From an uncultured Acidobacteriota bacterium (GTDB taxonomy: Bacteria; Acidobacteriota; UBA6911), in contig CAWIVH010000012.1 in the NCBI GenBank assembly GCA_963839475.1, forward strand, positions 407,711 to 471,710: a stretch of DNA of 64,000 nt, read 5' to 3'. Below are positions 42,699 through 52,962 of the stretch, one piece after another. The notes beneath the pieces were generated by a model. That model saw only the letters and a list, made by a program, of their open reading frames with translations. It made no database searches and was not told where the DNA came from. Each line of letters starts with the position of its first letter. Positions within the stretch are counted from its first letter, which is position 1. The position numbers and the translations under genes are program-made.

Positions 42699-42915
42699 CC
42701 TGCCTCATCGTGGTCTGATATCCAGGCAGTTGGCAATTCCTTCACATCTCCGACATGAATAGGAAATGGGCATGCCCTGCTTGACCCATGGCTCCTGGCA
42801 AAAATCGCGCAAATTCCAGAGTGGAATAGATTAAGATAAACTGCCATTTTTCTGTTCAGCGGGTGAGTGTCGAAGCATCAATTTGGATTCCGTTGATTCC
42901 AAGGGAGGGGTACCG

Positions 42916-52300: not shown

Positions 52301-52962
52301 CCACGCAGGTGTTGGAAAGAGATCGAAAGCTCCTGCCACTAACGGCTTTGAGCGGCGATCTTTTCGCCCTCGCAAACAATCTAGGGCGGCCGGGCGAGTG
52401 CCTGCCATTGGTAATCGGAACCCATCAGCAGGGGGCATTCCGCCGGTCGCTTGCATATTGGGTTGGAGATGGCCAACTGACTCAGGTCGACAGCATGATT
52501 GATCTGCGAGTTCGGCTGGAATCTTGGCATGGCAGCTTTCCCAAACCCGCCGAATGGCTCGCGGCCGAAGCCAAGGCACGACGCGAGGCGCGGAGGCAAG
52601 TGGAACAGATGGCAAACCGGGCCGCGGAACGCGAACGCCTCGCTCTAAAGCGGCAACTAGAAGCTGCACGCCTGCGCCTGAAGCGCGAACTCGGCCGATA
52701 TCTCGCCTGCCTCGATTTGGGGACAGAAGACCTGAACGCTGTCCTTCACCAACAAATGACCAGGGATATCGTCGGCGCTGAGCGTCTCAAAACCGCCTGG
52801 TCAAAGCTCGGCGGCTATCCGGAATGGGAACCGGAACTAATTCGAGAGTTGGACCAGTTCACTCAGTCGCTATTGGAAGGCCAGCGCCGCGCCCGCCTTC
52901 TTGGCAAGGAGCTCGATGCCGCGTTGGAAGATCCGCGCTGGGATGCACGGCTATCTGCCTAG
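49372..52962 (+). CDS. PLD-family (HKD) nuclease domain fused to a SNF2-family helicase
   Basis: N-terminal HAKFGIATD…[11 protein letters not shown] (HxK…D…GSxN PLD motif). Helicase motifs [13 protein letters not shown] (I), [14 protein letters not shown] (II), [42 protein letters not shown] (V/VI). Confidence 0.8.
   Translation: [1196 protein letters not shown]

Follow-up and report, generated by a model that had tools for sequence, protein, structure and literature searches.

The 64,000 nucleotides analyzed here (the window) come from an uncultured Acidobacteriota bacterium (lineage UBA6911; assembly GCA_963839475.1, contig CAWIVH010000012.1, positions 407,711 to 471,710, forward strand) and carry, at 42916-52962, four open reading frames (ORFs) on the same strand (+). 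With fair confidence we interpret this locus as a complete four-component methylation-based restriction system. It resembles MANTIS (the type 2 BREX-related, or BR, system formerly called Gao_RL; BREX, bacteriophage exclusion), and it would belong to a separate lineage in which a small DUF7680 protein takes the place of DUF3780. An earlier sequence-only reading had placed all four ORFs at 42883-52962 and proposed a restriction-like module composed of a DUF499 ATPase, a small ORF, a DUF1156 adenine methyltransferase and a phospholipase D (PLD)/SNF2 helicase. These domain assignments are borne out by Pfam and PADLOC profile matches, and the Pfam searches proposed there as a check returned significant matches for each of the three large proteins (Table 1). 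The motifs that it quoted are all found: GFGGGKTHT in the ATPase, RLHVWWARRPL and DPPY in the methyltransferase, and GSGNES together with the SNF2 motifs in the helicase. Our analysis also upholds its view of the module as a defense system akin to restriction-modification.

The structure of the BR systems is variable, and the helicase is a major distinguishing element. In type 1, or Hma (helicase-methylase-ATPase), the Snf2 helicase bears TUDOR at its N-terminus and an active PD-(D/E)XK (NOV_C/DUF3883) nuclease at its C-terminus (PMC12839542; PMC11232893). In type 2, an N-terminal HKD endonuclease replaces TUDOR and a standalone DUF3780 gene is present in 98% of the taxa, while type 3 combines a standalone PglZ and an inactive STAND protein with a helicase that lacks a nuclease (PMC12839542). 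The type 2 system of Pseudomonas aeruginosa AZPAE15024 (Gao_RL / Gao_29) has been characterized and renamed MANTIS; it consists of the DUF499 AAA+ protein MtsA, the DUF3780 protein MtsB, the methyltransferase MtsC and the PLD-helicase MtsD (bioRxiv 10.64898/2026.09.23.753747). MtsA, MtsB and MtsC together with ATP hemimethylate an asymmetric 6-bp site; restriction depends on the complete set of four proteins and on both ATPase activities, and favors inverted pairs of sites (bioRxiv 10.64898/2026.09.23.753747). The description of the present module as "three-component" is therefore difficult to maintain, as restriction by its characterized relative requires all four proteins, and methylation requires A, B and C.

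The locus shares with MANTIS an identical A-B-C-D gene order and domain architecture, including the tight coupling of the small gene to the ATPase gene, and it retains every residue that was mutated or highlighted in the MANTIS study. In the ATPase, the Walker A residues K86 and H88, the Walker B E192, the arginine finger R262 and the sensor-2 R354 align with K80, H82, E174, R244 and R336 of MtsA. Residues D529 and Y532 of the methyltransferase align with D621 and Y624 in the DPPY motif of MtsC, and H147, K149, N168, K303 and D406 of the helicase with H122, K124, N143, K260 and D372 of MtsD. With its gene content, order and coupling conserved and its catalytic residues intact, the locus is apparently an intact four-gene system.

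The start codons of the first two genes can be refined. The mechanical ORF of the ATPase opens at TTG 42883 (982 aa), but the start is most likely ATG 42916, which lies downstream of a Shine-Dalgarno-like GGAGGGG; the resulting 971-aa product is the form recorded in public collections. For the small gene (mechanical ORF 45828-46259) the start is ATG 45831, giving a protein of the same length as its homologs. The overlap with the ATPase stop codon is therefore TGATG (1 nt), and not the ATGA previously suggested, and the product has 142 rather than 143 aa. Promoter and terminator scans gave matches no better than shuffled background, so that operon boundaries could not be drawn.

In the methyltransferase, the RLHVWWARRPL (37-47), DPMAGGG (motif I, 132-138) and DPPY (529-532) motifs are present, and Pfam gives a weak RMKL-like methyltransferase match besides DUF1156. 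Among 42 relatives, residues 241-510, between motif I and DPPY, are the least conserved, with a minimum at 361-390. This variable segment fits a target-recognition domain, as in MtsC, where the target-recognition determinant occupies the same central region, with motif I before and DPPY after it (bioRxiv 10.64898/2026.09.23.753747). In the ATPase, the C-terminal part of about 190 aa is the most variable (64 relatives); a variable ATPase C-terminus has been reported for BR ATPases (PMC12839542).

The helicase-nuclease starts with a PLDc_2 domain (residues 97-204), followed by SNF2-rel_dom, Helicase_C and, at the C-terminus, about 300 additional aa. The motor motifs GMGKT (300-304), LDEAH (405-409) and SATP were identified, and each chain has one HxK (HKD) motif, as in the dimeric MtsD. 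PADLOC PLD_Helicase (1e-67) scores above HmaA (2e-46), and the nearest NCBIfam model is phospholipD_antiphage, the Gao_RL PLD protein (1e-100). No match to a C-terminal nuclease family was found on the helicase in Pfam or PADLOC, and its nearest solved relative by sequence is RapA, for the helicase core only.

The sequence-only reading had tentatively named the system Hma. There are clear similarities, as Hma also combines a DUF499 ATPase and a DUF1156 methyltransferase with an Snf2-type helicase fused to a nuclease (Payne et al. 2021; PMC11232893). HmaC (6e-70) and HmaB (1e-77) are moreover the best PADLOC matches of the ATPase and methyltransferase, ahead of the Gao_RL models DUF499 (3e-30) and DUF1156_MTase (2e-43), so that the PADLOC check proposed in that reading had a mixed outcome, with PLD_Helicase best for the helicase. 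HmaC and HmaB are likewise the best matches at other DUF7680-type loci, and embedded genes are frequent in Hma operons, which would be in line with a three-gene module that carries the small ORF as a passenger. However, the Hma model matches are partial, both here (HmaC covers residues 19-626 of 982 of the ATPase) and at the other DUF7680-type loci, at about 230-320 bits. The nuclease of the present helicase is an N-terminal HKD domain, whereas that of Hma is a C-terminal PD-(D/E)XK/NOV_C domain combined with an N-terminal TUDOR; the absence of a PD-(D/E)XK Pfam match and the lower score of HmaA led us to reject membership of Hma. Hma also lacks a conserved small fourth gene, and the small gene does not behave as a variable passenger: it adjoins the ATPase gene in essentially every locus and its product is 60-87% conserved. 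Thus, the helicase architecture points to the type 2 or MANTIS design, and an Hma system with an embedded passenger gene is a quite improbable explanation.

The small protein matches DUF7680 (PF24728) with 39 bits (gathering cut-off 24) over profile positions 1-138 of 141, and contains 24 Arg and 4 Lys as opposed to 6 Asp and 6 Glu. We identified 694 homologs (E<=1e-3), almost all of 142 aa, 60-87% identical across phyla and pre-annotated as PF24728. A chance ORF or a passenger gene is ruled out, because these homologs sit at a fixed position. The sequence-only reading had called the ORF a conserved-position unknown: the conserved position is supported by the context in relatives, and the protein is not an orphan but a member of a Pfam family, albeit an unstudied one. 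DUF7680 is not mentioned in any paper of the literature that we searched.

Is DUF7680 related to MtsB? Profile-profile comparison with hhalign gave a collinear alignment of DUF7680 2-142 with DUF3780 41-191 (139 columns, score 23.2), and independent runs produced the same alignment. This score exceeds all 120 column- or block-shuffled controls (means 12.6-14.4, maximum 21.5) and both reversed controls (14.1 and 20.0, over only 25-26 columns each), but hhalign's own statistics for it are weak, with E 0.0076 and a probability of 5% in one run, E 0.47 with larger alignments and a probability of <=5% overall. AlphaFold2 models of both families contain, at low confidence (pLDDT, the predicted local distance difference test, 62.5 and 51.5), three strands, a long helix, a fourth strand region and four helices. 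This order of elements agrees with the literature, where DUF3780 is described as a sheet of four strands backed by five helices (PMC12839542). Secondary structure agrees for 70% of positions in the hhalign register; shifted registers average 46% and reach at most 61%.

The alignment also pairs conserved residues. A57, G71 and G81 of DUF7680 align with A97, G115 and G124 of DUF3780; the best-conserved residues of DUF7680, E114 and W117, fall on the invariant MtsB residues E156 and W159, and R132, A133, L134 and R135 on the invariant R179, A181, L182 and R183. In the crystal structure of MtsB, the dimer interface includes reciprocal hydrogen bonds between E156 and W159, and G177 and D188 of the next helix make up another such pair (bioRxiv 10.64898/2026.09.23.753747). 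Both families are basic (mean net charge +12.5 for DUF7680 and +5.6 for DUF3780), which fits the positive surface reported for MtsB (bioRxiv 10.64898/2026.09.23.753747). Taken from sequence and models, DUF7680 is a probable remote homolog of MtsB. By analogy, it is likely to be functionally equivalent, i.e., a co-activator of methylation; the MANTIS authors anticipate that other proteins take the role of MtsB in related systems (bioRxiv 10.64898/2026.09.23.753747).

Alternatively, the cassette could be MANTIS-like with a DUF7680 protein that is unrelated to MtsB and acts as a transcriptional or autoimmunity regulator, a reader of DNA or its modification, or a nucleic-acid chaperone, so that the ATPase and methyltransferase would work without a co-activator of the MtsB type. 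In favor of this, standard statistics give no significant sequence match between the families: the small protein had no DUF3780 match at E<=10 in Pfam and none in NCBIfam, and BLASTP against a DUF3780 protein was not significant. DUF7680 is also shorter (142 aa, compared to about 200-216 aa) and far more basic. On the other hand, the operon position and the coupling to the ATPase gene are those of mtsB, no inspected locus had both families, their secondary-structure elements come in the same order, and the full-length profile alignment is collinear and scores above all shuffled controls, with the conserved E-x-x-W and R-x-A-L-R residues on the helices of the MtsB dimer interface. We consider an unrelated DUF7680 unlikely. 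A Foldseek search with the low-confidence DUF7680 model matched its N-terminal sheet (about 60 residues) to the PC4, Sub1 and Pur-alpha folds, which bind single-stranded DNA (E 0.6-1.7, target TM score 0.35-0.44); these matches are weak and not significant, and offer only a lead for a possible role in nucleic-acid binding.

Several observations weigh against placing the locus with MANTIS, in addition to the failure to match DUF3780, the weak hhalign statistics and the low pLDDT values given above. Identity to a canonical locus, on a Stutzerimonas plasmid, is only 24% for both A and C and 28% for D, and B gives no significant match. The NCBIfam equivalog scores are 140 bits for the ATPase (DUF499_antiphage), 204 for the methyltransferase (DUF1156_antiphage) and 338 for the helicase, at cut-offs of 1200, 1000 and 1100, while the canonical locus reaches 1400-1500 bits on the PADLOC Gao_RL models. 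As described above, the Hma models of PADLOC give the ATPase and methyltransferase higher scores than the Gao_RL models do, over partial length. No gene for an MtsR-like (Arc/CopG) repressor is located upstream, and cleavage by MtsD was not reconstituted in vitro (bioRxiv 10.64898/2026.09.23.753747). Other differences concern the proteins themselves: the small protein is a DUF7680 and not a DUF3780 protein, the DUF3780 representative in the Nucleic Acids Research 2026 classification (PMC12839542) being a canonical DUF3780 sequence, and the helicase has 1196 instead of 910 aa, being about 290 aa longer at the C-terminal side.

When analyzing related loci, the overall organization of the cassette is conserved. 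The order DUF499-DUF7680-DUF1156-SNF2 was found in 7 metagenomic or genome contexts, and the cassette in 79 loci of species-representative genomes from more than 10 phyla, including Acidobacteriota, Planctomycetota, Chloroflexota, Verrucomicrobiota, Gemmatimonadota, Armatimonadota and several proteobacterial classes; this genome scan used a narrower alignment of relatives of the window's protein, and is biased toward its own DUF7680 subfamily. The ATPase gene lies directly upstream of the DUF7680 gene in essentially every locus, its stop codon overlaps the DUF7680 start in 53 of 77, most commonly with a 4-nt overlap of the ATGA type, and the methyltransferase and then the PLD-helicase follow, with all four genes in order, in 34 of the 37 loci that have at least 8 kb of downstream flank. 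Two exceptions to the order were seen: in one (L087) the PLD-helicase gene precedes the ATPase and DUF7680 genes, and a methyltransferase gene is missing from the 10 kb downstream; in the other (L039) the 10 kb downstream contain neither a methyltransferase nor a helicase gene.

More typical DUF7680 proteins (Pfam 1e-28 to 1e-47) are encoded at the corresponding position on plasmids from Aminobacter, Euhalothece, Rhodococcus and Halobacterium. DUF3780 holds this position in loci of Stutzerimonas, Acinetobacter and Bacillus cereus that are labeled "anti-phage-associated" by NCBI, and the two families never occurred together in the loci inspected. All four proteins of the window are nearer to those of the Aminobacter DUF7680-type locus (A 27%, E 6e-64; B 36%, E 1.5e-7; C 34%, E 1e-140; D 32%, E 2e-125) than to MANTIS. 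As the small-protein family differs by locus, there are, judged from the sequences, two lineages of HKD-helicase BR systems that can be told apart by this family. A more far-reaching proposal is that the DUF7680 cassettes constitute a distinct, undescribed sub-lineage ("type 2b") of HKD-helicase BREX-related systems, the co-activator being either an independently recruited small basic protein or a relative of MtsB beyond sequence recognition. We put this forward as a tentative possibility only. Cassettes with DUF7680 are widely distributed among Acidobacteriota, Planctomycetota, Chloroflexota, Verrucomicrobiota, cyanobacteria, actinobacteria and haloarchaea.

The junction between the DUF7680 and methyltransferase genes, which holds no cargo in the window (Table 1), is a site of insertion in many relatives: the gap is below 200 bp in 34 of 63 related loci, and the other 29 contain 0.7-9.8 kb of cargo. 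This cargo is mostly encoded on the same strand and includes NYN/HEC-09 (8 ORFs), Schlafen AlbA_2 with HATPase_c_4 (5-6 ORFs) and SMODS (CBASS-type) cyclases (2 ORFs), as well as SIR2, Dcm with Vsr, AbiEii-like ATPases and, in one locus (L001), an MNT/HEPN-like pair. It parallels the defense genes that are often embedded in Hma operons (PMC11232893). Related cassettes also adjoin integrases or resolvases or are located on plasmids, and are rare on viral contigs (2 loci found). The closest relative on a plasmid, in Roseomonas mucosa (NZ_CP044118.1), has a helicase 52% identical to that of the window, but the system looks decayed: its methyltransferase is truncated beside an IS6 transposase, a gene for a hydrolase of the metallo-beta-lactamase (MBL) fold lies between the methyltransferase and helicase genes, and there is no ATPase or DUF7680 gene.

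By analogy with the MANTIS system of P. aeruginosa, we propose that the DUF499 AAA+ ATPase, with ATP, would place the DUF1156 methyltransferase on a recognition sequence that is short and asymmetric. Methyl transfer would be stimulated by the small basic DUF7680 protein, which is probably dimeric and translated in step with the ATPase. At host sites this would lead to N6-methyladenine on one strand each, with recycling of the complex through ATP hydrolysis. At sites on unmodified incoming DNA, the bound ATPase, small protein and methyltransferase would instead recruit or activate the helicase-nuclease dimer, in which the two HKD halves would form one PLD active site. The superfamily 2 (SF2) motor could serve in translocation or communication between sites, after which the DNA would be cut, with a probable preference for inverted pairs. 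Each biochemical step in this model is carried over from MANTIS by analogy, and so are hemimethylation, the orientation preference and the equivalence of DUF7680 with MtsB.

The sequence-only reading had taken the PLD-helicase as the likely DNA-cleaving effector, and this is strengthened by the loss of restriction in the MANTIS mutants H122A and K260A, as both residues are kept here. A different outcome, in which unmodified DNA is not cut at specific sites and protection results from a BREX-like block of replication or from abortive infection via nicking, could account for the lack of in vitro cleavage by MtsD. It also has precedents: Halomonas HmaA alone protects through a nickase activity that resembles abortive infection (PMC11232893), and BREX relatives restrict without clear cleavage. 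Nevertheless, restriction by MANTIS requires the catalytic histidine of the PLD domain and is governed by methylation status and site orientation, and the toxicity of methylation-dead MtsC is seen only together with an intact nuclease (bioRxiv 10.64898/2026.09.23.753747). With the same residues kept in the window, we regard a system that does not cut as highly improbable, and favor site-specific restriction. The behavior of MtsC mutants also bears on the expectation, expressed in the sequence-only reading, that deletion of the methyltransferase alone should be toxic. In MANTIS, knocking out mtsC causes no toxicity, as targeting of the nuclease also relies on MtsC, and only the catalytically dead protein is toxic; a test of deletion toxicity would therefore be misleading.

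Several other systems share parts of this design. Type 3 BREX (BrxC, PglXI, BrxHII) and BR type 3 have homologous cores of the ATPase, methyltransferase and Snf2 helicase (PMC12839542), and weak PADLOC matches to BrxC, PglXI and BrxHI/HII were obtained at this locus. In contrast to these systems, the locus has no PglZ, BrxA, BrxB or inactive STAND (iSTAND) genes and its helicase carries a nuclease. Assignment to BR type 3 was rejected, as no ORF in 39758-61211 gave a PglZ match and the helicase has the HKD domain. The combination of a PLD nuclease with an SF2 motor is analogous to SauUSI, a structural neighbor of MtsD (bioRxiv 10.64898/2026.09.23.753747), and hemimethylation of asymmetric sites with a preference for inverted sites, as in MANTIS, to Type III and Type ISP enzymes. 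Unlike these enzymes, systems of the present type would use a separate AAA+ loader and a small co-factor, and SauUSI targets modified instead of unmodified DNA.

MANTIS is the first DUF499-centered BREX-related system for which a mechanism was worked out, and MtsB is its least understood part, being needed for methylation and having no known fold relatives. The value of the locus described here lies mainly in the natural comparison that it offers for this unexplained step. If DUF7680 is a remote homolog of MtsB, the few residues common to both point to the core on which co-activator function depends; in the case of an analog, ATPase-gated methylation has been solved twice. Should the proposed "type 2b" be real, the comparison could establish which minimal element turns on AAA+-dependent methylation; the pair of helices with E-x-x-W-W and R-x-A-L-R, common to both families, is a candidate. 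In view of the mixed Hma and Gao_RL matches in PADLOC v2 and NCBIfam scores far below the cut-offs, loci of the DUF7680 type are likely to be mislabeled or missed.

Table 1. Features of the four-gene system and of the island around it (window coordinates).
Feature	Position	Strand	Remarks
MtsA-like DUF499 AAA+ (ORC/Cdc6-type) ATPase	42916..45831	+	971 aa; Pfam DUF499 4e-18
Small basic DUF7680 protein, MtsB position	45831..46259	+	142 aa; Pfam DUF7680 1.2e-9
Spacer between DUF7680 and methyltransferase genes	46260..46348	.	89 bp, no cargo here
MtsC-like DUF1156 N6-adenine DNA methyltransferase	46349..49324	+	991 aa; Pfam DUF1156 7.5e-18
MtsD-like HKD(PLD)-SNF2 helicase-nuclease	49372..52962	+	1196 aa; Pfam PLDc_2, SNF2-rel_dom, Helicase_C
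tRNA-Met (CAT)	34801-34877		adjoined by the island
Tyrosine integrase	34947-35996	-	directly after tRNA-Met
S24-peptidase/HTH repressor-like gene	38795-39634		
SoFic gene	39758-40927		
553-aa ORF directly upstream of the system	41037-42698	+	no Pfam, PADLOC or NCBIfam match
1400-aa NACHT-related ORF	53130-57332	+	N-terminal P-loop GEPGIGKTT; NCBIfam EruA 6e-70, HyoA 1e-50
McrBC-like pair	57527-61211	+	790-aa McrB homolog (AAA_5), 456-aa McrC homolog

The module is located within an integrated island that adjoins a tRNA-Met gene (Table 1). After the integrase follow an HTH_17 protein, an AAA_24 protein, the S24/HTH repressor-like gene, SoFic, the 553-aa orphan, the four-gene system, the NACHT protein and McrBC; together with the tRNA-Met and the integrase, this order identifies a set of defense genes in a tRNA-integrated island. 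A second copy of the tRNA-Met 3' end (attR) was not found up to position 64000, and the far boundary of the island is therefore either outside the window or degenerate. The best named matches of a glycosyl hydrolase were a mixture of Acidobacteriota and Planctomycetota.

A direct repeat of 39 nt (87% identical; 39590-39628 and 40960-40998) brackets the SoFic gene, with one copy inside the S24/HTH repressor-like ORF, at its 3' end, and the other just past the Fic stop codon, which suggests that the Fic gene was inserted as a cassette. Genes for Fic-domain proteins that are 31-32% identical to the SoFic of the window are found near related cassettes in L004-L007 (17140-18183) and L053 (294-1157). 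As the Fic gene lies downstream in contigs of the Desulfobaccales type and upstream in a Gemmatimonadales metagenome-assembled genome, at least two independent contexts exist, and the proximity may reflect chance co-location in defense islands or a recurrent association.

For the 553-aa ORF, no counterpart was found beside any of about 90 related loci, and it is present on the identical Logan contig. The 1400-aa NACHT-related ORF has no Pfam match above threshold, and its EruA and HyoA scores are well under the equivalog cut-offs. It was not seen beside any related cassette, and is therefore probably an independent single-gene defense. In its C-terminus, a D...E-x-K-like stretch (DIRVD...IIETKG) could represent a PD-(D/E)XK nuclease. 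In the McrBC-like pair, the mcrC start lies inside the end of mcrB (overlap 59841-59899), and the McrB homolog has an extra N-terminal domain that resembles the PADLOC PDC-S02 and REase_II models. To judge from these homologies, the pair would constitute a modification-dependent system beside the methylation-based one.

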